Shown: piece by piece, positions 23,094 through 54,900 of the stretch
Layout of the letters: each line of letters begins with the position of its first letter
How positions within the stretch are numbered: position 1 is the first letter of the stretch
Notes under the pieces: generated by a model
Told to the model about the DNA's origin: nothing
Seen by the model: only the letters and a program-made list of their open reading frames with translations
Database searches by the model: none
Made by a program: the position numbers and the translations under genes
Assembly (NCBI GenBank): GCA_016839705.1
Contig: JAEOTR010000014.1
Coordinates: 63,294 to 127,293 of the forward strand
DNA length: 64,000 nt
Reading direction: 5' to 3'
Source: Promethearchaeota archaeon
GTDB taxonomy: Archaea; Asgardarchaeota; Lokiarchaeia; Sigyniarchaeales; SOKP01

Positions 23094-24265
23094 TTTTTGT
23101 CCCAATAGTTAAAAATTCTCCATTGTTTATCTTTTAATTGCTTCTTATGTTCCGGGATAATATGAACTTCATCTAAATCTTCTAAGGATGAAGATTTTAT
23201 TATATTAATCATGTCTTGTAAAAAGAGTATATTCATCTTACCTCTTGTATCTGCATCTGCAGAAGCATTATGAGGAATAAGTATCATACGAATTTCAGGT
23301 CGTTGTTGCTTGATTTTCTTAAACCTTTCGAGGATTTTACTATTGAGTGGTTCTATTGGAAAGACATCAAAGGCAATGTTTATAGAGATTTCATTTGTTT
23401 CAAGCATATCAAGTAGAGAATCCAAATCCAGAACCGGTCCTCTTGCAGTATTTACTAGTAGAGCATTTTTTTTCATTAATTTCAATAAATCCCGATTGAC
23501 CATTTTTTCAGTATATTTATTTAAAGGAACATGGATACTAACGATATCTGAGTCTCTGAAGACATCCTCTATATTTTCTTTGAATTCAATGGAAGGGAAA
23601 TCCTGTTCGAACTCATTCATCTGATTAATATCATAATACAGAATTTTAATCCCCCAAGGATATAACCTTCTAATTATTTCTTTTCCAATTTCACCCAATC
23701 CAACGATACCGAGTACTTTACCAGTGATTACAGAAGAAAGAGATTGATCTAAATCCCATTTATCTTCAGGTGTCCATTGATTATCCCAAATATAATTATG
23801 GAGATCAACAAGATTCCTCAAGTTTGCCATAATTATTGCTATCGTATAATCTGCAACTGTTTCATGGAGAACTCCAGGAGTATGAGTTATAATAATATTA
23901 TCTTTATGAGTTCTCTGAATGTGATTATATCCGACTGTTGATGTAGAAATAGCAAAAACATTTGAATTTTCCAACGTTTCTGAATTTAAAAAATGACTTA
24001 AGTGGCATCCAATGATATCAGGTTTAAATTCCTCAACTCTCTTGTTAATCTGATCTTCAGAGGGAAATCTCCCTTTGAATACTTTTAAATTTGAGATTTG
24101 ATCTAGTTCTTGCCATAAATTTTTAATATCTTTGCGGATCACTTCAGAGATTGCTTCATTAGATCCAATTTCCATATCTGAGAAAACATTTGAGGTGAGA
24201 AATACCTTAGGTTTGTAGGTCATACTCATAACCAGTATTTTTGTACTTTTGAATTTTATGATCAT
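23090..24265 (-). CDS. D-isomer-specific 2-hydroxyacid dehydrogenase (glyoxylate reductase-like)
   Basis: HTPGVL, GIVGLGEIG, VNTARG, DVFPIEP, PHNASA. Confidence 0.9.
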   Translation of the reverse strand: MIIKFKSTKILVMSMTYKPKVFLTSNVFSDMEIGSNEAISEVIRKDIKNLWQELDQISNLKVFKGRFPSEDQINKRVEEFKPDIIGCHLSHFLNSETLENSNVFAISTSTVGYNHIQRTHKDNIIITHTPGVLHETVADYTIAIIMANLRNLVDLHNYIWDNQWTPEDKWDLDQSLSSVITGKVLGIVGLGEIGKEIIRRLYPWGIKILYYDINQMNEFEQDFPSIEFKENIEDVFRDSDIVSIHVPLNKYTEKMVNRDLLKLMKKNALLVNTARGPVLDLDSLLDMLETNEISINIAFDVFPIEPLNSKILERFKKIKQQRPEIRMILIPHNASADADTRGKMNILFLQDMINIIKSSSLEDLDEVHIIPEHKKQLKDKQWRIFNYWDKK

Positions 24266-24354
24266 TAATTTTAATATTCAATTTTATCTAATTATCAAGA
24301 TTTATTAAAACAAACTCTATTTTATAATTAAAAATATTGAGCAAGTGGTATGAA

Positions 24355-24507
24355 ATGGCAAAAGTTAAATGTCAACAATGTAAAGAAGAAATAGTTGGAG
24401 GGGCTAAAATACAAGAATTTGACCCTATTGAACCTACAACGATGCATGTATTTTGTTCTAAGGAATGTAAGGACCAGTGGCTCGCTTTAATAAGTGAAAA
24501 ACAATAG
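24355..24507 (+). CDS. 50-aa TRASH/YHS-type metal-binding protein; absent from ORF track
   Basis: MAKVKCQQCKEEI...HVFCSKECKDQW. Confidence 0.75.
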   Translation: MAKVKCQQCKEEIVGGAKIQEFDPIEPTTMHVFCSKECKDQWLALISEKQ

Positions 24508-24608
24508 ATTTTTTATTATTCCTATATTTTAGATATTCAATTTTTCTTCAAGATTGAAGATTCATTTTAAGATAAAAAATCCCCAAATTTTATGTGAAAT
24601 TACTATTA

Positions 24609-24977
24609 TTAGGTGATATTTAATTTTTTTCTGTTTTCTTCTATATCCTTAAAAATCTGCCATTTTGAAAGGAGAGCATTTTCAATTGTCGCAGTCCATA
24701 TACAATGATCTTCTTCTTTAGAATCCTTAGACCATAGAGCATAACCAATTAAAATTACCAAATTCTCTCGAGATTCAACTCTGGTAAAAATATTTTTATA
24801 AGTAGGCCATTCATTGAAAAATCTTTTCCATCCATTGACCATATCTCTATCCCAATATCCTTTACGATCAATAAATATATGGTCTTCTGCCATTAAACCA
24901 ATTAATCCCTCAATGTCTTGATTGTTGATATATTCATTAAATTGAAGAGCTGTTAATTTCGGATCTCGTTTATTCAT
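24609..24977 (-). CDS. NTF2/SnoaL-like protein
   Basis: FNEYINNQDIEGL..LMAED..FID pattern. Confidence 0.75.
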   Translation of the reverse strand: MNKRDPKLTALQFNEYINNQDIEGLIGLMAEDHIFIDRKGYWDRDMVNGWKRFFNEWPTYKNIFTRVESRENLVILIGYALWSKDSKEEDHCIWTATIENALLSKWQIFKDIEENRKKLNIT

Positions 24978-25010
24978 AATAACACTTCGAAAATTACTAC
25001 TAAGTCGATT

Positions 25011-25973
25011 TTATCTCTTAATTTTTTCAGGGAGATAAAAATCATAGGTTTTCTTAAGCAGTTTGGTTTTAATATACCTATCAATTCTCCTAGCATTTTG
25101 AAAGATTACCCATATCAATTTATCACTCTTATAATATTTTTGTACTTCAATAAAAGTGATCGGGTCTAATTCAAATTCACTTGCTTCTTCTTTTAAGAAT
25201 TTGTTAACCCTTTTGATTAACCGAGGTATAATTTTCGGTAATTGTTCCTTAAAAAAGTTAGCAAGTAAGTCAATAATTACTAGCCTCAGGTCATAATAAC
25301 GATCTAATACATCTTGAATGAAAAATGCCTTTATTAGGAATCTTAAGAATGATGGTGTGCTATTTAAGAACAATTCTGCCTCCATTGCTTCCACACTATT
25401 TTTTCGAAGGAACGGGGTGCTGGTATCAAGATATAATAATCTAGAATTTTCATTTACAAAAGGGTTTTTTGCATCGTAATCTATTAAGACAAAATTAGAA
25501 ATTTGACCATCCAATCCTATTTCTATATCTTCTTTTTGCTTATTTAATGTCCATACTTTCTTAAATTCTCTTAAAACAAGTAAAACCAGTATTTCTACCT
25601 CATCATCGCTTACCTGGTGAATAATTTTGTTTCCAACAGATTCCGGATCAATTTTAGCTTGAACGCTATAAAACTGGATTTTTCCTTTATTATCTAAGAA
25701 CCATATTACTTGATGTTCTGGAAGAATCAAGCCAATCTGCTTCTCTAAAATCCTGCAATATTCATTGTACGCCCAAACATGCCTTCGAACTTGCTTTTCA
25801 TTATCAAATATTGGAATTCTTTTATAGGCTAGATGTTCTGGATCTCCAATAATTTCAAACACTAAACTCATTTCTCCAAATCCAAGTATTTTTATGGGGA
25901 TTTTTCCTGTTTCTGGATGAATAGTGTCAATTGTTTTTTCAAATTCTTTTAACAATTCAATATTGATTTTCAT
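25011..25973 (-). CDS. DUF6206-like (kinase-like fold) protein
   Basis: ILGFGEMS, AYKRIP, GLDGQISNF, YLDTSTP. Confidence 0.65.
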   Translation of the reverse strand: MKINIELLKEFEKTIDTIHPETGKIPIKILGFGEMSLVFEIIGDPEHLAYKRIPIFDNEKQVRRHVWAYNEYCRILEKQIGLILPEHQVIWFLDNKGKIQFYSVQAKIDPESVGNKIIHQVSDDEVEILVLLVLREFKKVWTLNKQKEDIEIGLDGQISNFVLIDYDAKNPFVNENSRLLYLDTSTPFLRKNSVEAMEAELFLNSTPSFLRFLIKAFFIQDVLDRYYDLRLVIIDLLANFFKEQLPKIIPRLIKRVNKFLKEEASEFELDPITFIEVQKYYKSDKLIWVIFQNARRIDRYIKTKLLKKTYDFYLPEKIKR

Positions 25974-42233: not shown

Positions 42234-43178
42234 GTGGAATTTAAAGTGAAGAAAATAGCCTTTTTGGGCTTGGACAACGCCGGCAAGACCAGTATAATTA
42301 CAGCAATTTCACAACGATTTGGATTTGAGGAAACTGTTGCTAAATTAATGCCAACAAGAAGAATTGCTCGTGATACTTTCAAATTTTTAGGATTAGAATT
42401 TTCAAGGCTTGATTTTGGTGGACAGAGAATATATAGAAACGACTATTTAAAACATCCTGAGAAATTCTTGAGTGGAATAGATTTAATCTTCTATGTTATT
42501 GATGCTCAGGATTTTGATAGATACATTGAATCCATAGATTATTTGGAGGAAGTTTTGCTATTTTTTAAAGAAACTCAAGAAGATGTTATGGTTTCAATAC
42601 TTTTTCATAAGTTTGATCCCCAGCTTGTTGATAATGTCGAAATAAACAAAAGAATCCTTACTCTCAAACAAGCTTTAACAAGGTATTCGAATCATTTTGA
42701 TATATTTTTCTTCGAAACCACGATATTTGATATTAAATCGATAATGGATACTTTTTCAAGTGGCCTATCAATGCTATTTGAAAAAATAGAAATGGTTTCT
42801 AACTTATTTTCAGAAATTAGTAAAAATTATAATACAATATTGATATCTTTATTCGATTCGAAAGGTATCACTCTTGGGGAGAGCTATCGTCCTCACTTAC
42901 AATTGACACAGAAATTAAAGATTTATGAAATTTATTTAAATTTACAGAAACGTATTATTGCAGAAAATCGAACGTTATTTGAATTTTCTGATAAGTTTGA
43001 AGATGGGGAGAGATTTTCTGGTATTATAGAAGTATTAAAATTTGGAAAATTAGATTTCTATCTACTATTTATAATAGAAGAAGATGAAACAGATTTAGAG
43101 AAGACAGTATCGCTTTTGGACAAAATTGAAGCGGCAAAACCTCAAATGGAAAATTTGATTTTACAATTAATTCAATAA
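42234..43178 (+). CDS. Rag/Gtr-like small GTPase with C-terminal roadblock/longin-like domain
   Basis: GLDNAGKTS, PT, DFGGQ, HKFD, TTIF plus C-terminal domain. Confidence 0.85.
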   Translation: MEFKVKKIAFLGLDNAGKTSIITAISQRFGFEETVAKLMPTRRIARDTFKFLGLEFSRLDFGGQRIYRNDYLKHPEKFLSGIDLIFYVIDAQDFDRYIESIDYLEEVLLFFKETQEDVMVSILFHKFDPQLVDNVEINKRILTLKQALTRYSNHFDIFFFETTIFDIKSIMDTFSSGLSMLFEKIEMVSNLFSEISKNYNTILISLFDSKGITLGESYRPHLQLTQKLKIYEIYLNLQKRIIAENRTLFEFSDKFEDGERFSGIIEVLKFGKLDFYLLFIIEEDETDLEKTVSLLDKIEAAKPQMENLILQLIQ

Positions 43179-43230
43179 AATATAGATCCACTTTTTTAAT
43201 AACAAAAGTAATTTCTTAAGTTTAGAAGAA

Positions 43231-43335
43231 CGCAGATGGAGGGACTCGAACCCCCGAACGCTTCCGCGCACCAGCTTTCTCGAATGATGAGAAAGATACT
43301 CGAAGCTGGCGTCTTACCAGCTAGGCTACATCTGC
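43231..43335 (-). tRNA. tRNA-Ser(CGA) with 22-nt intron at 37/38 (43277-43298)
   Basis: Acceptor GCAGATG/CATCTGC plus G73, anticodon stem CCAGC/GCTGG, CGA at 43300-43302, long variable arm, GGTTCGAGTCC T-arm, bulge-helix-bulge. Confidence 0.92.
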
Positions 43336-43472
43336 TTTATGTGAATCTATTTAAAATGTTATACTGAATACAATTCCTTATTAAATTTAAAACATATCAA
43401 ATTTAAAATTCTTACTCTTTAGGATAACGGGGAGTAAATATATAATCTTTGTTTGAATTTATGTTTAAAATG

Positions 43473-43775
43473 TTACTGTGTAGTGGGAACATAAATTTTT
43501 AGTTTTAAGGTCGGATCCAGAAGTTTTATTAGTCCTTCTCCTTCATATTGTTTTATAAGAAGTTTTGCTGTTGAGACTCTTATATCAAATTTAAATGCGA
43601 GATCCGTCGGTAAGATTGATTTTTTCTTTGTAATATACTCTCTGATATCTTTTTCTACTTTTTTAGGAACAAAAGCATCTCTTTCAACGATATTGATTTG
43701 CTTAGATCTCCCGTATTTTCTCCTAAGATTTATCGTTGCTTTTCTAACTAGGAGTTTTTCTTCTTTCTCAGACAT
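43473..43775 (-). CDS. rps25e: ribosomal protein eS25
   Basis: Basic N-terminus and wHTH ILPTDLAFKFDIRVSTAKLLIKQYEGEGLIK. Confidence 0.75.
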   Translation of the reverse strand: MSEKEEKLLVRKATINLRRKYGRSKQINIVERDAFVPKKVEKDIREYITKKKSILPTDLAFKFDIRVSTAKLLIKQYEGEGLIKLLDPTLKLKIYVPTTQ

Positions 43776-44719: not shown

Positions 44720-47700
44720 ATGAATTTACGAAATATACATAAAATTCGATTAAAAAGAGTGTCATTACTCTTAACGTTGGTACTAACGATCCTTTTTCCA
44801 ACGTACTTGATAAATTTTTCTAATTTTACAGGGTTTTCAAAGAATATGAGTGAAAACAATGTCAAAGACAATGATTTTATTAATCCAAAGGATTTAAAAT
44901 TAAGTGTTTTTGGTTCTGCTCCTTGGTGGGATAGCTCATATGAATATCGAATATTGATCAATGTTACGAATACATATGGATACGATTTTACAAATTATGG
45001 GGTAGAGTTTTCGTTTAATTATGAAGAGTTAGTACAAGCTGGAAAAATGCAAGCTGATTTGGATGATGTTAGGATTGTAGAAAATGAAGATGTGCGAAAC
45101 TATTATATTATAAAAGATTACCCTTCGCAGGACTATGCTACAATATTTTTTGACACAGATATTTTAGCAAGTATGACAGAAACCGATACGTATATGTATT
45201 TCGGCAATGTTGCTGCTGTAAATGCAGAGGCTGATCAACCTAATGAGAGTTTTGGATGGGTAAAAAACGGAGATTTTGAGTTAGATATTGACTCTAGTGA
45301 TAAATTCGAACCTTATGGTTGGTATTTCTCACATAACCCCGTTGACGAAATAATGGGATTAGCAAATCCAACTCCAACCGAAATTAATAGTTCTGCAACG
45401 AGCTTCCAACTATTTGTAAATAAACTTATTAACACCCCCGCGGGGGGAGAACGAGTTGCAAATGGAAACTTTGCTTATAAATGGGGGACACCAGATACTA
45501 CTCTATCGGGAGGAAATATTAATGATTATGCAGGTACTCTTTTTACATATCCTTTCACGGTTCCAAATGTAGATGGGGGTATTTCTTTATCATTTTACCG
45601 AAATATTAGAACCTTTAGATTTGAAGAGCCAAAAAATCCTCCGGGTCCGGGTCCTATAGATATTGATGGCTATTTTATTAGAGTTTTGAACGGCTCTAAT
45701 GGTGTTTATGATACTAATCCAGATAATCATGATGATGACGATATTGATCCTACATATGGAAATTATGCTGAAGTTTATGATGGTCATGCTTGGTATAATC
45801 CATCATCGAAGAAATGGACTGACGACACAATGCTTAAAGACTTTTCAGTACATACTTTAATACACGATACTAAATCAGATTCCTCAGCAGATGGAGATTT
45901 GACGGGTTATTCAGAAATAGATCTAACTCCTTATATGGGAAAGGAAATATTTTTTGAAATTGGTGCGTGGGGTGACGAGTCGAATGCTGAGAGAAAACAA
46001 AAAGACGCCTTTTTCCAAGTGGATGATCTAAAATTTAATTACACACTCTCAACTTCTGCTAATGAGGTTCAGGCTAGAAAATCTGATGTAACTGTTATTG
46101 CAAGAGATATTGATGGAAGGATTGTTCCTAATGCAGAGATAATCATGATAAACAAATCATCTCAGGCAATAATATCCACAGGATTTACATCTGAACTAAA
46201 TGGATCAATCAGTTTTGATCAGTTACTTAATGGGGAATATAATATAACCGCAAATTACACTTTAGGTTCTAATGAGAATTATGTTGGAAGTATGTTAACC
46301 AACTTTTCTGGAAAAGAATATACTGTTGAAATCACACTAAACTTATGGACAATTGATTTTGAGATTGTTGATTGGGACGGAATTCCTTTAAGTTATGGAT
46401 TTATTGAAGTTAATGAAAGCATAAGTAAAGCATTTGTAGAAAAACTAACGTTAGATAGCAATGGAAAAGCAACATTTCGTTGGTTGTATACTCAGGATTA
46501 CTACATAAGAGTTTTTTATGAAAATGAGGACTACACGGGTACTCAATTTCTATTGAATGAATCTACTCTATACCGAAATATTTATGATCGAGTTGGAGCA
46601 AAATATCAAACTCAATCATTATGGGTAAATAATACAAACAGGAACTTAGTAGGTGAGAATTCCTATGCTGTTAGTGAGAGAGTTTATTCAAATGGTTCTC
46701 TAACTGATTTTGGAAACTCAAAACTCATTAAAGTTAATGTATCTTTAACTGATATGATTAACCAACTAGAAAATGTATACGTTTATTATATTGATAAAGA
46801 CAATTCTACAGGTACTGGTACTGAAAATCTAATTTACTTCGAAAACGGGTATGCTCCAGGAACATCAAGCGATTTTATTGAGTTAGATATACCTAAAGTT
46901 GATAATGTAAAATTACAGTCTGAAAAATTTGAGGCTTATGGATTGCTAATTGAAGTAAATGGAGTTAATTTTACTCAATGTGACGGAAACATAAAAATTG
47001 ATACAATTGAAACATGTAATATCTATAATAGAACTCATCTTGCTCGAATGGATATTAAGGTAGTTAATATCAATCCCTTAACACCGGAAGGGGCACCTTT
47101 AGATACAATAATTAAAGTAACTAATAATGCGACTGGTGAATCCATAATAAATTTGACATCAAATTCAGGAAGAGAGGGCTTAGCCTTTGGTCAAATTAAT
47201 GATATACCATTTTGGTTTTTCAAGGATAGAGTGTATAACTTTTCAATAGATGTTATTAATATAACGAATGTGGAATTTAATGTCTCAGCGATGTCACCTG
47301 TAGATCAATGGCGTCCCACAAGTAGTGCAGGAGTTAATTGGTACAATTATACTTTATATGGAGGAGCCTCATTGACATTTAATGTAATATTTTCTCAAGA
47401 CATAAATATAAGTAATTATATTACATCTTTTTTCAATACTACAGGAACAGAAGTTGTTTTCTGGGGTGAAGATTTGATTTTCTCGACTGATTTCAGATTC
47501 AGTGTGGATGATGCACAGTCTTGGTCTCCTGTAATAAGTCCCGATGCAGATTGTTTTGTGTATATTAGAAATGTCGGATCAGAAATAAATTTAATAGCAG
47601 AAGAAATGGTTCATTTAGGCTCGGGAAATTACTCTATAACAATAAATTCAAATCTTTTATCAGCAGGAGGAGATTCTAATTACTACTCTGTAAAAATTGA

Positions 47701-49117
47701 AGGGTTTTATCCCGGATATCCCGATCCTAGTCTAGAAAACATATTAATTCAAGTGAAATCGATCCCTACAGAAATTAAATCATATGACTATGACTCATTG
47801 ACAGAATTACAAGGAGATTCTCTTACTGCTTACTATGATGAACTGATCAATATAACAATTAGATATTCAATTGCTGGATCTGGGAATCCACTAAATAATT
47901 CTCTTCTCAGTTATGACTGGATAGGTCTTGGTCCAATTAGTTTCTCTTCTGATCCTTTAAACAGTGGTTATTATACATTTATAATTAATACAGCAGATGC
48001 TCAGAGTACAGGGTTAAAAGTTATTAGTATTACTGCATTTCTTGAAAACTACACATCGCAGGAAAATTTTCTAATTTATCTTAACATTCTTCAAAGACGA
48101 ACCACACTTAATGATAACAGTGATTTAGTATACATGAGTCCGTTGATATGGGTTCAAGATACTCATTATTATACATTTACTTATAGAGACGCTAATACAT
48201 TAGATATTATCGGTGATTTAAATATAAAAACTTTTAGTTGGTATGAATTAGATGAATTTGGTGATCGAATCCCTGGAAATCAAGGTACGGGAACACTTAT
48301 TCAAAACTTGAATAAAACTTATTACGTGGATTTTGATACTGAATTAAAGCACGTTGGATTTTATTTCTTTCATATTACACTTCAAAAGGAAAATTATGAA
48401 CCAAGATTTGCCTATATAAATCTCCAGATTAAACTAAGAGAATTCGAGGTTTCCTTAGAAGGTACAGAACCTACTGTGGGAAATAACAACCAAATTAGAG
48501 TAGCTCAAGGAGCAGATGTATTATTTGAAATTAGTTTAATAGATCTTACACGTGGAAATATAGCCTTAGAAAATGCTCAAATTACATTGAATCTTGGGGG
48601 TATTGATTATAGTTTTAATGGATCTCTAGGGATATACACTCGAACCTTTAGAACTAATGCAATTGACACTTTCATCACTTCAAAAACATTAGCGGGTAAA
48701 ATAACGGTTGAAATGGATAATTTTACAACTCAAGAAATTTCAATTACCGTAATTGTTGCAATGGAAGAAATCTTTTCAGGAATGCCAACATTCTACTTTA
48801 TTCTGATTATAGCATCAGTAATAGGTGTTGTAGGAAGTATCGTAGGGTATCGAGTCATCCAACAAGCAAGAATTCCTAAACATGTGAAAAAGATTAGGAA
48901 ACTTAAAAGTGCAATAAAATCTAAGAAGAAAATTGCTGACACATTCGCAATTCCATCAAAAGCAGAAATGATAGCAAAATTATTCGGGGATGATTGGAAA
49001 GAGCTAGGTCTTTCAATTAACGAAACTTTAGGAATTAAAGATCTAAAATCAAAGAAGCCACCAGTTAATGATAAGATAGTTAAAGATAAATTCAATGAAG
49101 GAGGTCAGATTGAATAA
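44720..49117 (+). CDS. large single-pass surface (glyco)protein: signal peptide, DUF2341-like domain, beta-sandwich repeats, TM, cytoplasmic tail
   Basis: Hydrophobic N-terminus, PWWDSSYEYRILINVTN...DVRIV...YMYFGN, many NxS/T sequons, TM at ~48791-48850, ~88-aa tail. Confidence 0.85.
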   Translation: MNLRNIHKIRLKRVSLLLTLVLTILFPTYLINFSNFTGFSKNMSENNVKDNDFINPKDLKLSVFGSAPWWDSSYEYRILINVTNTYGYDFTNYGVEFSFNYEELVQAGKMQADLDDVRIVENEDVRNYYIIKDYPSQDYATIFFDTDILASMTETDTYMYFGNVAAVNAEADQPNESFGWVKNGDFELDIDSSDKFEPYGWYFSHNPVDEIMGLANPTPTEINSSATSFQLFVNKLINTPAGGERVANGNFAYKWGTPDTTLSGGNINDYAGTLFTYPFTVPNVDGGISLSFYRNIRTFRFEEPKNPPGPGPIDIDGYFIRVLNGSNGVYDTNPDNHDDDDIDPTYGNYAEVYDGHAWYNPSSKKWTDDTMLKDFSVHTLIHDTKSDSSADGDLTGYSEIDLTPYMGKEIFFEIGAWGDESNAERKQKDAFFQVDDLKFNYTLSTSANEVQARKSDVTVIARDIDGRIVPNAEIIMINKSSQAIISTGFTSELNGSISFDQLLNGEYNITANYTLGSNENYVGSMLTNFSGKEYTVEITLNLWTIDFEIVDWDGIPLSYGFIEVNESISKAFVEKLTLDSNGKATFRWLYTQDYYIRVFYENEDYTGTQFLLNESTLYRNIYDRVGAKYQTQSLWVNNTNRNLVGENSYAVSERVYSNGSLTDFGNSKLIKVNVSLTDMINQLENVYVYYIDKDNSTGTGTENLIYFENGYAPGTSSDFIELDIPKVDNVKLQSEKFEAYGLLIEVNGVNFTQCDGNIKIDTIETCNIYNRTHLARMDIKVVNINPLTPEGAPLDTIIKVTNNATGESIINLTSNSGREGLAFGQINDIPFWFFKDRVYNFSIDVINITNVEFNVSAMSPVDQWRPTSSAGVNWYNYTLYGGASLTFNVIFSQDINISNYITSFFNTTGTEVVFWGEDLIFSTDFRFSVDDAQSWSPVISPDADCFVYIRNVGSEINLIAEEMVHLGSGNYSITINSNLLSAGGDSNYYSVKIEGFYPGYPDPSLENILIQVKSIPTEIKSYDYDSLTELQGDSLTAYYDELINITIRYSIAGSGNPLNNSLLSYDWIGLGPISFSSDPLNSGYYTFIINTADAQSTGLKVISITAFLENYTSQENFLIYLNILQRRTTLNDNSDLVYMSPLIWVQDTHYYTFTYRDANTLDIIGDLNIKTFSWYELDEFGDRIPGNQGTGTLIQNLNKTYYVDFDTELKHVGFYFFHITLQKENYEPRFAYINLQIKLREFEVSLEGTEPTVGNNNQIRVAQGADVLFEISLIDLTRGNIALENAQITLNLGGIDYSFNGSLGIYTRTFRTNAIDTFITSKTLAGKITVEMDNFTTQEISITVIVAMEEIFSGMPTFYFILIIASVIGVVGSIVGYRVIQQARIPKHVKKIRKLKSAIKSKKKIADTFAIPSKAEMIAKLFGDDWKELGLSINETLGIKDLKSKKPPVNDKIVKDKFNEGGQIE

Positions 49118-50226
49118 TGCCAATTGGATTAGTAATAATGAGATGGGATATAAAAGTTAGCACGGAGATCCTTGCAAAATATCCCGATGAGCTCGTAATA
49201 ACCGAGGAAACCTTAATGCAAATATATGCCGCTCATGAATATACAGGGGAGCCGGGAATGATTAGTTTACTTGTTGGCCCATTAAATATTGCTTCATATT
49301 ATACCGGTAGAGAAAAACCTCTTTATATTATTCTGCTTTTAAACCTAGATGAAGATGCTGATGCGTATGAAGGGGGATTATCTGATATATCACGTGTGAT
49401 TTTTCAAAATTATGAAGATAATGCATATTTAGAGATGATCCCATTCCTATTCCAACGTCTTTCAACCTATCCTTATTTAAATGAGGAGCAAAGTTTAGCG
49501 ATTACATACCTTGATAACGTAAACAGATTAATCATAAATAGATTAAGAGACGAAGGTGTGATTTCAAAATCAGAGTTAAAAATTTGGTTAAAGGATAGGT
49601 ATAGAGAGGGCTTTTTCGATGTAGATGCTATTTTAATGGAACTAATCAAAAAGGAGATAGTGAAAGAAGCATCTGTTAAGGGGATGCCTTCAGAACTAAT
49701 CTTTCTTATAAATGATTTATTTATGATTCGCCGACCACCAATTTCTTTACTAAAGAATCCTTCTGAGAGAGGACTCCCTGAGAGATTTGTAGAGGAGTAT
49801 AAAGTGGCAATTCGGAAATTCTTCCAAAAGTATCGACCTTCAGATGATGACAATCTTAAAATTTTAGATAGCGTAATAGCTGATCCTCAAGTATATGAAA
49901 TTCTGAAACTATTAAGAATCTCGATTGTTACGAAAAATGTTTTAGAGAAGCTTCGAAAAAAGGGGGTTGATGATATCGATGATGGGTTGAAAAAGCTATG
50001 GGATAATCAAATGATACACGTATTTCAAGATACTAAGGGAAATGAATACTATGCACTACTTACAGATTTTTATAACTCTTTAGTATATCCTAAATACATG
50101 ATAAACACAATAATTCATCAATATACTGTAAAATCCAAATCAAATTCTGTTCTTATTGAATATCTCAATGTATTGGACGATAGCTATAAACCAGCTAAAG
50201 TAAATGTAGAAGAAAACGAAGATTAA
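49117..50226 (+). CDS. longin/uDENN-like plus winged-helix-like protein (copy 1)
   Basis: GLVIMRWD....TEILAKYP N-terminus; TAATG overlap with upstream gene. Confidence 0.7.
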   Translation: MPIGLVIMRWDIKVSTEILAKYPDELVITEETLMQIYAAHEYTGEPGMISLLVGPLNIASYYTGREKPLYIILLLNLDEDADAYEGGLSDISRVIFQNYEDNAYLEMIPFLFQRLSTYPYLNEEQSLAITYLDNVNRLIINRLRDEGVISKSELKIWLKDRYREGFFDVDAILMELIKKEIVKEASVKGMPSELIFLINDLFMIRRPPISLLKNPSERGLPERFVEEYKVAIRKFFQKYRPSDDDNLKILDSVIADPQVYEILKLLRISIVTKNVLEKLRKKGVDDIDDGLKKLWDNQMIHVFQDTKGNEYYALLTDFYNSLVYPKYMINTIIHQYTVKSKSNSVLIEYLNVLDDSYKPAKVNVEENED

Positions 50227-51904: not shown

Positions 51905-54900
51905 TTGAAAAAAAATGATGATGAAGATAAAATGAAAAACATAAATAAAAACATTAAACATAGAATTACGACTAGTTTCTTATTGATTCTTACTATTGGT
52001 ACAATTTTCTTTGTAACTCCATTAATTTACAATAATAGTTTGAACACCACTGATAATAACTCGGATAAATATGAAGAAAGCTTAACATTACCAGTAATTA
52101 GTAATGGTATTGGCGAAGATCCGTGGTGGAATGCATCTTATCAATGGAGACAATGCATTAATATTACGAATCCAGGAGCCTACAATATAACTGATAATTA
52201 TGTTAGTATAGAATTTGACTATACAGTATTAAGAGATAATTATAACATGGATCCTGACTTATATGATGTTAGAATTGTAGAAAACAATGCTGTCAGAAAT
52301 TATCATGTAAAAAAAGATTTTCCCTCAAATGGTATTGCAACTATCTGGTTTGAAACAAACTCTACGTTAGCTACTTCAGAATATGACACGTATATGTACT
52401 GGGGCAACGCATCTATAAATGATCGCGGGATAAATCATGTGAGTTATGATCCTTCTGGAACTTCGTGGTGGAGTTTTGAGGAGGGTTCTGGTGCCTATGG
52501 AGATACTGTTGTTGATTCATTAAATTTTGCCAATGCCACACTCTGGGGTACAGGTAGTAGTTATTCACCAGATTATGATATTGATAGTGCTGTGGGTTCA
52601 TATTCTCTGAACTTCAACGGTAACAATGATTTCATTTATGTAAACGATGAGTTGCATTTTACTGACCCAAATGAAATTTCCACGGTAACAGTTAGTTGTT
52701 GGTTTAAGACATCATATATCAGTGGAGGTTGGACTGATAATTGGGCTTTTTTTGATTTTGATAGATCTGAATATTTCAACTTTTATATCGATCCAACGGA
52801 TGGAAGCATTGGATTTGCTACCGCAGCTTCTGGATATGGAATTCATGATTTTTCTAGTATCACTACTGGATTAAACGACGGTGAATGGCATTTTGCCACT
52901 GTTGTGTATGATGGTTCAGATAAAATAATTTATATCGATAATGGTGTAGAAGATAGAAGATCCGTAAGTGCTATGGGAGATAGAGCTATTGGCACGGGTA
53001 CAGATAGATGGGGATTTTTCGGGGATGGTTCTGAGGCTTCTAGCGTAAATGGGGGTAGAAATAATCGATATTACTCAGGAAATATAGATGAAATCAGGTA
53101 TTTTGAGTATGCAGTTGCTCCAGACGAAATCGATTGGTTAGCAAATTATTACGAAATTCAAACTGATTTATTGCCTGTAACAGAACGAGCGGCAAGTGTC
53201 ACTATCATTGTGGAAGATATAGATGGTCGAAGAGTTCCAGGTGCAGAAGTCTCTTTATGGGATAACTTAACACATATATTGGAAGTCGGAAGCACAACAT
53301 ATACAGAGTATACTGCATCAGATGGTACAGTATCATTTACAAAAGTTCCATTTGGATTTTATAACATTACAGTCAATTATACATTAAATAGTGGATTATA
53401 TGAAAATATTGTCTATGACGGTCGTATAAACCCTGCAGATGAAGTAGAATTTAAGGGTTTAACTGCTATAACAAATGTTACTGTTGATCTATGGACTATA
53501 GATTTTGATGTTGAAGATTGGGATGGAGATCCATTAAATTATGGATATGTAAATATGAGTGCTGGTGCTAGTGAAGTTTTAGAATCTTTAACCTTAGATT
53601 CTGCTGGTGAAACGACTTTTCGTTGGCTAAATAGATCTAGTTATAACTATACAATATACTATGATAATCCCGACTATACAATACAAAATCCTACTTCACT
53701 AAATGCTAGTATAATTAACCGTGCAGGAATAATGAATTACACTGAATCTGTGATAACAATCTTATCAAAATTAGATATACGTATAATGGACAATACGGGA
53801 ACAGAAAGTGTAACCGGTGTAACTGTTAAAGTACAATTAAATAATACGAGCACTGATGTAGTAGAATTACAAACAGATACTACGGGATATGCTTATGGAG
53901 ATCTAACAAAAGATTTCGGATTTTGGTATAAAACAGGACTGGTTTACAATTTCAGTCTATGGATTATTGGTCAACAACAAAATTTCAAAGTCAACACATC
54001 AGATAAATGGAAACCCATACTTACAGATTATTATAATTATACATTAGATCAAGCATCTACTTTAGTATTTTTCTTGGATGGTTTGAACTTTACTGAAAGA
54101 ATCGCTAATTTTACAGATTGGGGTGGAACCACTGAGGTTGTCTGGGGAGAAGACATGTCTTTCTGGGTATTATATGAAACATCGAATAATAGTGGGTTGA
54201 ATTGGACAGGTGATTGGAATCGAGATGGTTTCTCAACGAATGCAATGTGGACGATTTATTCAAAATCCGGACAAAAGATATATGAACAACCAATGGTTCA
54301 TGCGTCAGGTCCAACTGGGAATTTTACAATTACGATAAACTCTAATTTTCTTTCAGCAGGTGATGGTTCCGAGTTTTATTTTGCCCTTGTGTCTGGTTAT
54401 AAGCCTTTCTGGAATGATCCTATTGACCAGTATTTTGGGATTACTGTAAAGGCAAAAGTAGCAGGTCTAACTCTACACAATTATACAGTTGTAGCTCAGG
54501 AATTGTCTAAAAACATAGCACTTGAATATGAAATTTCGGAGTATTATGGGAATATTATCAATGTTGCAGCAAGATATTATGATGATATAACTAAGGGAGC
54601 TTTAGTACCTGATACATTTACTTATGATTGGGATTATGGTTCAGGAACATTAGTATCGGGACCTGTAGCAGAATATTACTATTTTAGTTTTGATACAACA
54701 CTTGCTACAAATGTTGGGAAATATAGAATAGATATTTCAGTAAGTCGAGAGAATTATTCGATGATTGAAAACTTTGGGATATATATTAATATCATTTCAA
54801 GACCTACGACTATAAATGGTTCTTCTGGATTACTATATGTTTCTGAGGATATTTTTATTTTTGAAGAAAAATCTTTTGCTTTTAACTATATAGATTATTT

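Follow-up and report, generated by a model that had tools for sequence, protein, structure and literature searches.

The window analysed here, the whole 64,000-nucleotide stretch G000:C81:63294-127293, encodes two giant type I surface proteins, each with a long cytoplasmic tail and each followed by a gene for a longin/winged-helix protein that we call the adaptor. The relatives of these window proteins are labelled Promethearchaeota or Lokiarchaeota. The features discussed below, numbered from the first position of the window, are as follows:

44720-49117, + strand: giant type I surface protein 1, 1465 aa (from the open reading frame [ORF] list, topology and Pfam)
48791-48847, + strand: transmembrane (TM) helix of surface protein 1, residues 1358-1376
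48848-49039, + strand: conserved core of tail 1, 64 aa (from the alignment and models)
49040-49117, + strand: variable linker of tail 1, with a GGAGGT ribosome-binding site (RBS) at 49100-49105 and a TAATG stop/start overlap
49117-50226, + strand: adaptor 1, 369 aa; longin, two winged helices and C-terminal helices
50328-51359, - strand: longin-like domain, Arf-like small GTPase and helical C terminus, 343 aa
51905-55801, + strand: giant type I surface protein 2, 1298 aa counted from TTG
55481-55537, + strand: TM helix of surface protein 2, residues 1193-1211
55538-55729, + strand: conserved core of tail 2, 64 aa; predicted interface residues 10-26, 29-42 and 46-61
55730-55801, + strand: variable linker of tail 2, with GGAGGT at 55787-55792; the stop is followed at once by the in-frame adaptor ATG
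55802-56917, + strand: adaptor 2, 371 aa, 67% identical to adaptor 1

Surface protein 1 begins with an N-terminal signal or TM segment and continues as a beta-rich stalk bearing 34 N-glycosylation sequons, followed by a single TM helix and the tail; its matches to DUF2341 and CarboxypepD_reg are both weak. Surface protein 2, whose true start is possibly the ATG at 51932, has an N-terminal hydrophobic segment, a LamG-like head, the stalk common to both proteins, 33 sequons, one TM helix and the tail, together with a weak DUF2341 match. The heads of the two paralogs differ, and the stalk puts more than 600 aa between head and TM. The stalks are 34% identical; for the tails, tblastn against the whole genome aligns 69 aa at 52% identity with E 1e-13. 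The distribution of sequons, with 33 to 34 in the ectodomains, none or one in the tails and none in the adaptors, is consistent with the topology. A RuBisCO large-chain-like gene (57036-58370) lies directly 3' of adaptor 2.

A consensus proposed for the two tails in a sequence-only reading of this DNA, YRxxQQARIPxxVKKxRKxKxxIKxKKxIxDxxxxPxKxExxxKxxGDxWxxLGLSxxxxLG, fits both at every letter, the leading Tyr lying at 48848 and 55538, one codon 5' of where that reading had placed it. Conservation does not extend over the whole of the roughly 87 aa first suggested: it covers the first 62 to 64 aa or so, and the last 22 to 25 aa or so form a variable Lys/Glu-rich linker. Across copies, linker length varies and the total tail length ranges from 77 to 144 aa. 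The core consists of a short helix, Pro10, a basic amphipathic helix (residues 11-24), an extended segment, a helix (38-51), Trp50 and a short helix (57-61). In the Trp/Gly motif that had been singled out, Trp50 is invariant, as is Pro10 (71 aligned tails), whereas the neighbouring Gly is not, Asp standing there in about one third. The C-terminal Gly-Gly was discarded as a protein motif, since it consists of the codons of the next gene's GGAGGT RBS. Searches with the tail gave nothing above the cut-off in Pfam, no usable match in the ESM Atlas and, among PDB sequences, at best a 20-aa stretch of an HMG-box protein (E 0.037).

The tail core is more conserved than the ectodomain, with mean pairwise identities of 73 versus 45% (14 protein 1 orthologs), 70 versus 39% (16 protein-2-type sequences), 40 versus 25% (family f2) and 46 versus 28% (all 58 sequences), and none of these sets contains a 64-aa ectodomain window as conserved as the tail. 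The adverse outcome named in the sequence-only reading, a tail no more conserved than the ectodomain, is thus not what is found in Lokiarchaeia, where the tails of both ortholog sets exceed every such window. In the copies in which tail and adaptor are fused (n = 18), the tail reaches 59% against 51 to 56% for the stalk/ectodomain, and 27% of ectodomain windows equal or exceed it. The TM helix is as conserved as the tail (66 to 78% across sets; 78% among protein 1 orthologs), and the adaptors surpass the tail (81 to 88% within class). Cytoplasmic parts are commonly more conserved than ectodomains, and a passive role has to be weighed, in which the tail would be a stop-transfer segment or an amphipathic anchor at the membrane surface, its conservation reflecting slow cytoplasmic evolution and its linkage to the adaptor an operon effect. 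The 22 Lys/Arg residues per tail and the hydrophobic moment of helix 1 (0.5 to 0.6) would suit such an anchor, as would a predicted interface that is not enriched in conserved residues (see below). We nevertheless consider it highly improbable, given the invariance of Pro10 and Trp50, the gene fusions and the controlled complex prediction. Furthermore, the Pro-x-x-hydrophobic-basic juxtamembrane motif is missing from 51 of the 56 type-I-like membrane proteins of the genome and present in five, all of them coupled to an adaptor gene; the tail is therefore neither a chance occurrence nor a generic positive-inside tail.

The tail is present in 26 of 31 related genomes. These 26 genomes hold 73 distinct Loki-type tail loci, and in all 72 that could be assessed the adaptor is tied to the tail, either as the next gene (48 split copies) or within one ORF (24 fused copies). 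Within Lokiarchaeia, the answer to whether the tail always sits at the longin-like gene is thus affirmative (72/72), and a long, conserved tail with such a constant partner gene bears out the earlier view that this is not a passive S-layer or adhesin anchor. In the split copies, the gap between surface protein and adaptor is -1 to +2 nt, that is, the two genes are translationally coupled; a sequencing artefact at the stop codons was ruled out, as all 48 retain stop, RBS and start. In the fused copies, the adaptor begins 82 to 86 aa beyond the TM. Three fused copies occur in this genome, as ORFs that combine ectodomain, TM, tail and adaptor and reach up to 2673 aa, at C29:25411-41512(+) (a pair) and C85:2-3859(+) of G000; genes with small-GTPase-like ends (23112-25115 and 42720-43706) flank the C29 pair. 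A phylum-wide draw added 24 further loci, every one coupled to the adaptor. The gene arrangement itself thus establishes that surface protein and adaptor would be synthesised jointly, either through coupled translation or within a single fused polypeptide.

In a tree of TM plus tail, built on few columns and rooted at the midpoint, the fused copies cluster together (support 90/90) within the split copies, and f2 is entirely split; fusion therefore looks derived. Mirror-distance correlations with the adaptor (rho 0.89 for the tail, 0.74 for the stalk and 0.62 for the TM) come from pairs that are not independent, and we do not count them as co-evolution because linked genes share history. Four sediment metatranscriptomes from one study yielded only short contigs (151 to 272 nt, a few identical) over 48288-48868, which cannot show transcription or co-transcription.

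The sequence-only reading had suggested predicting the tail-adaptor complex, which we did with ESMFold2 for tail 2 and adaptor 2 alongside three controls. The pair scored 0.80 (runs 0.80, 0.82 and 0.80) against 0.00 for the best control, on a benchmark that pairs derived from a sometimes-fused gene tend to pass. Of 80 solved complexes, 58 attain the benchmark mark; of 110 mismatched pairs, 2 do. These counts are rough with the alignments used here. At least 95% of the contacts, about 88 in number, agree between runs, with a partner pLDDT of at least 77, and the tail has a pLDDT of 78 with the adaptor versus 30 beside an unrelated protein. The predicted tail-binding surface of adaptor 2 comprises residues 200-241 (56399-56524) and 318-360 (56753-56881), and the longin (residues 1-120) is untouched by the tail in the model. 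In addition, AF2 models a natural fused copy with a tail pLDDT of 92 to 97, a linker pLDDT of about 51 and a pTM of 0.86, and a fused relative, as modelled in the ESM Atlas, superposes on residues 1-450 with a TM-score of 0.91 and an rmsd of 2.6. Among the solved structures of the PDB, no sequence is similar to this tail-adaptor pair. The predicted interface is not significantly more conserved than the remaining residues (p = 0.13 for the tail, p = 0.49 for the adaptor). Modeled alone from 71 sequences with AF2, the tail shows the same helices (pLDDT 75; pTM 0.44), and their packing is not confident. The idea of a small folded docking domain therefore holds for docking, through the coupling in 72 of 72 copies and the controlled complex model, and falls short for an autonomous fold; because the tail has no confident fold alone and becomes ordered on the adaptor, we describe it as a fold-on-binding clamp rather than as a domain. 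Judging from these models, the tail very probably binds the adaptor.

Beyond Lokiarchaeia, the picture is less uniform. The adaptor family was found in 146 of 201 Asgard genomes and, with the query used, not in the other 55, among them entire families (f7, 0/21; f24, 0/10; f16, 0/7; f18, 0/5). The expectation that the tail is always next to its partner gene, which holds in Lokiarchaeia, breaks down in f21, f23, f17 and f9, where no adaptor lies directly downstream of the tail-like proteins (13 loci). These tail-like proteins are weak HMM matches confined to the first helix (E 1e-4 to 1e-6), and the genomes of all four families encode adaptors elsewhere. Elsewhere, the adaptor lies 3' of a tail-like protein in f5, f23, f28 and f6, and 5' of a giant surface protein in f9 and f15. 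In distant families (L118-L129, L137), small acidic helical repeats come after tail helix 1, in place of an adjacent adaptor gene. Within the genome studied here, C65:13464-19718(-) of G000 carries a shorter tail type that lacks the Trp motif, followed by a distant adaptor and then a gene for a TrmB-like helical protein. Other distant adaptor-like genes of this genome lie at C1:67935-69011, C49:54255-55475 and C97:85939-86586 (E 1e-12 to 1e-34); in the two neighbourhoods covered, those of the C1 and C97 copies, there is no upstream surface protein. In P0161 and P0174 (Helarchaeota, adjacent accessions), the adaptor domain is N-terminal in proteins of about 1000 aa, one of them named "SIR2 family protein" at the source; these are adaptor-effector fusions.

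Some of these arrangements bring to mind a sorting tag read in trans, whereby the adaptor, adaptin-like, would recognise many surface proteins as cargo and position them, for example, in protrusions or vesicles. A shorter tail type lacking the Trp motif occurs in two or three tandem surface proteins per single adaptor gene (L133, L135 and L136), and f21 genomes carry up to four tail-like proteins each, apart from the adaptor-GTPase operon, both of which would fit such a function. However, 24 of 72 copies are permanently fused and the present family has one adaptor per protein, pointing to a stable 1:1 unit, and the predicted interface of about 88 contacts wraps around the adaptor in a manner unlike that of a transient short motif. 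On balance, we regard trans sorting as unlikely.

The adaptor itself consists of a longin, two winged helices and terminal helices, and across the whole chain its fold most resembles that of GATOR1/SEA chains (Foldseek E 2e-4 to 1e-3, at TM-scores of just about 0.2 to 0.3). The longin matches known folds with Z 11.3 to 11.7 (rmsd of about 3 Å over about 120 to 123 aligned residues) and the first winged helix matches winged-helix proteins with Z 8.4 to 8.9, while the second is assigned from secondary structure and from a match to the archaeal regulator PH1932 (E 0.0035). This match, together with the TrmB-like gene 3' of the distant C65 paralog, could indicate a membrane-tethered transcription regulator, with the tail holding a DNA-binding adaptor at the membrane until release. 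Such a role is very unlikely in our view, as the adaptor is fused to a membrane protein and linked to a GTPase gene, and the winged helices of GATOR1/SEA, which provides the best whole-chain folds, are protein-interaction modules. The winged-helix arrangement of the adaptor differs from that of NPRL2/NPRL3 (TM-score of about 0.2), and no adaptor matches Pfam NPR2/NPR3. A GP motif before strand 2 has been described in the longin GAP subunits NPRL2, FLCN and SMCR8 (PMC12290439). The motif is absent from the adaptors, which have Gly (53/67) or Ser (14/67) at this position and never Pro after it (0/67), and is present in some distant relatives. Given the missing GP motif and the missing Pfam NPR2/NPR3 match, the adaptor is viewed as working like an NPRL2/3-type module but is not classed as one.

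Ser15 and Arg65 are found in 14 of 14 adaptor 1 orthologs, the class that adjoins the GTPase gene; at these positions the remaining Loki classes carry Gly and, for the most part, Pro. Arg65, located in the β4-β5 loop, is absent from those classes. A longin-only profile run against PDB and Pfam for the residue register with NPRL2 returned no relevant match. In a comparison with tripartite DENN proteins, in which cDENN and dDENN come after the longin, the DENN matches of the VIA search cover the longin only. Arg65 is possibly an arginine finger, adaptors 1 and 2 possibly form a pair, and Ser15/Arg65 offer a lead toward a class-specific GTPase contact.

The gene for the longin-Arf-like GTPase is convergent on adaptor 1 in all 14 assessable orthologous loci, and homologs (26 to 40% identical, full length) abut the adaptor in six more families (f10, f21, f14, f17, f11 and f9); no adjoining GTPase was found in family f2 (13 loci). 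We rate the chance that the adaptor engages a small GTPase as about even. The linkage would also be expected of a true receptor, in which a ligand bound at the lectin-like head would act through the conserved TM and tail on a putative GEF or GAP switch in the adaptor. A TM conserved like the tail, paralog heads that differ (LamG-like in protein 2) and the adaptor 1 class with its fixed Arg in the β4-β5 loop speak for this possibility; the long stalk between head and TM and the absent GP motif speak against it, and we hold it to be rather unlikely. A further objection comes from carriers that have no ectodomain at all: proteins of 151 to 156 aa with two or three TMs bear the tail upstream of an adaptor (L059:9305-9772(+), L116 and L173). 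In view of these small carriers, the evidence favors a tether over a signalling role. The conserved TM leaves outside-in signalling possible, and a regulated form of it seems to us rather unlikely.

We favor tethering: beneath each surface protein, the tail is probably a fold-on-binding clamp by which the longin/winged-helix adaptor, translated together with it, is held against the cytoplasmic side of the membrane. In the predicted complex, the basic helix would place its hydrophobic side (Pro10, Phe/His12, Val13, residues 16 and 19, and Ile23) in a groove formed by adaptor residues 331-356, tail segment 29-37 would run alongside residues 322-329, and Trp50-Leu55 would pack on residues 200-241, Trp50 resting against the invariant Pro207. 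The conserved tail lysines 14, 21 and 27, outside the interface, may face the membrane. Docking would keep the adaptor at the membrane with its longin free for a GTPase, and gene linkage suggests that the free longin may engage the longin-Arf-like GTPase, as a recruiter or a regulator, at sites marked by the surface proteins. The pair offers a predicted interface that is small and expressible, 64 aa on 370 aa, and in which individual residues can be targeted by mutation, and it would put a eukaryote-like longin regulator at the membrane together with a candidate GTPase.

Cultured Lokiarchaea have a single membrane with complex, unordered surface proteins (PMC9834061); they crawl with actin-filled protrusions, and an ARF GTPase is among the Lokiactin coimmunoprecipitation matches (PMC13716822). 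We found no paper naming a link from surface protein to cytoplasm in Lokiarchaea and no description of the tail or of its surface-protein connection in a literature search whose coverage excluded most subscription papers; the tail and its tie to the adaptor are real, and the predicted docking is a variant for which we found no published description. A broader speculation, which we think has little likelihood, is that of an ancient Asgard surface-to-GTPase signalling unit. In it, variable lectin or adhesin heads would act through the conserved TM and tail clamp on an NPRL2/3-like adaptor, adaptor 1 (Arg65) and adaptor 2 would resemble a catalytic/noncatalytic longin pair acting on the longin-Arf-like GTPase, and the whole would be a prokaryotic forerunner of GATOR1-type regulation at a membrane tether, with adhesion and protrusions as processes that it possibly steers.

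With archaeal S-layer and adhesin C-terminal TM anchors, the surface proteins share a signal segment, a glycosylated beta-rich ectodomain, a single C-terminal TM and basic residues after it, but they differ in their long conserved tail with invariant Pro and Trp and in their obligate partner gene. As in eukaryotic cargo recognition by AP complexes reading YxxPhi or dileucine signals, or in the docking of talin to integrin tails, the cytoplasmic tail of a single-pass protein would dock a soluble adaptor, and AP sigma and mu longins are among the fold matches of the adaptor longin. The Asgard signal is instead a helical clamp of about 55 aa, predicted to bind outside the longin, with coupled or fused genes and no sequence homology to those systems. 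Asgard "NPRL2-like longin" families have been described in the accessible portion of an earlier report, with NPRL2-like proteins, two-component-domain fusions and a Roadblock-GTPase-DENN operon (Liu et al., bioRxiv 10.1101/2020.10.19.343400), and Asgard longins with the GP motif appear in the available part of another (PMC12290439). Our adaptors resemble them in having an NPRL2/uDENN-type longin expanded in Asgard genomes, whereas the surface protein, tail and tether go unmentioned in those portions of the two reports. Like NPRL2/NPRL3 (Npr2/Npr3; GATOR1/SEACIT), the adaptor has an N-terminal longin and a tandem winged-helix C-terminal region; unlike them, it would be held by the tail of a giant surface glycoprotein, to which it is often fused, and its neighbouring GTPase is longin-Arf-like rather than Rag. 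Longin GAP complexes are tethered to the lysosome by KICSTOR, Ragulator/LAMTOR1 and WDR41-PQLC2, and by analogy the Asgard tail and adaptor may work like such a membrane-tethered GTPase-regulator module.
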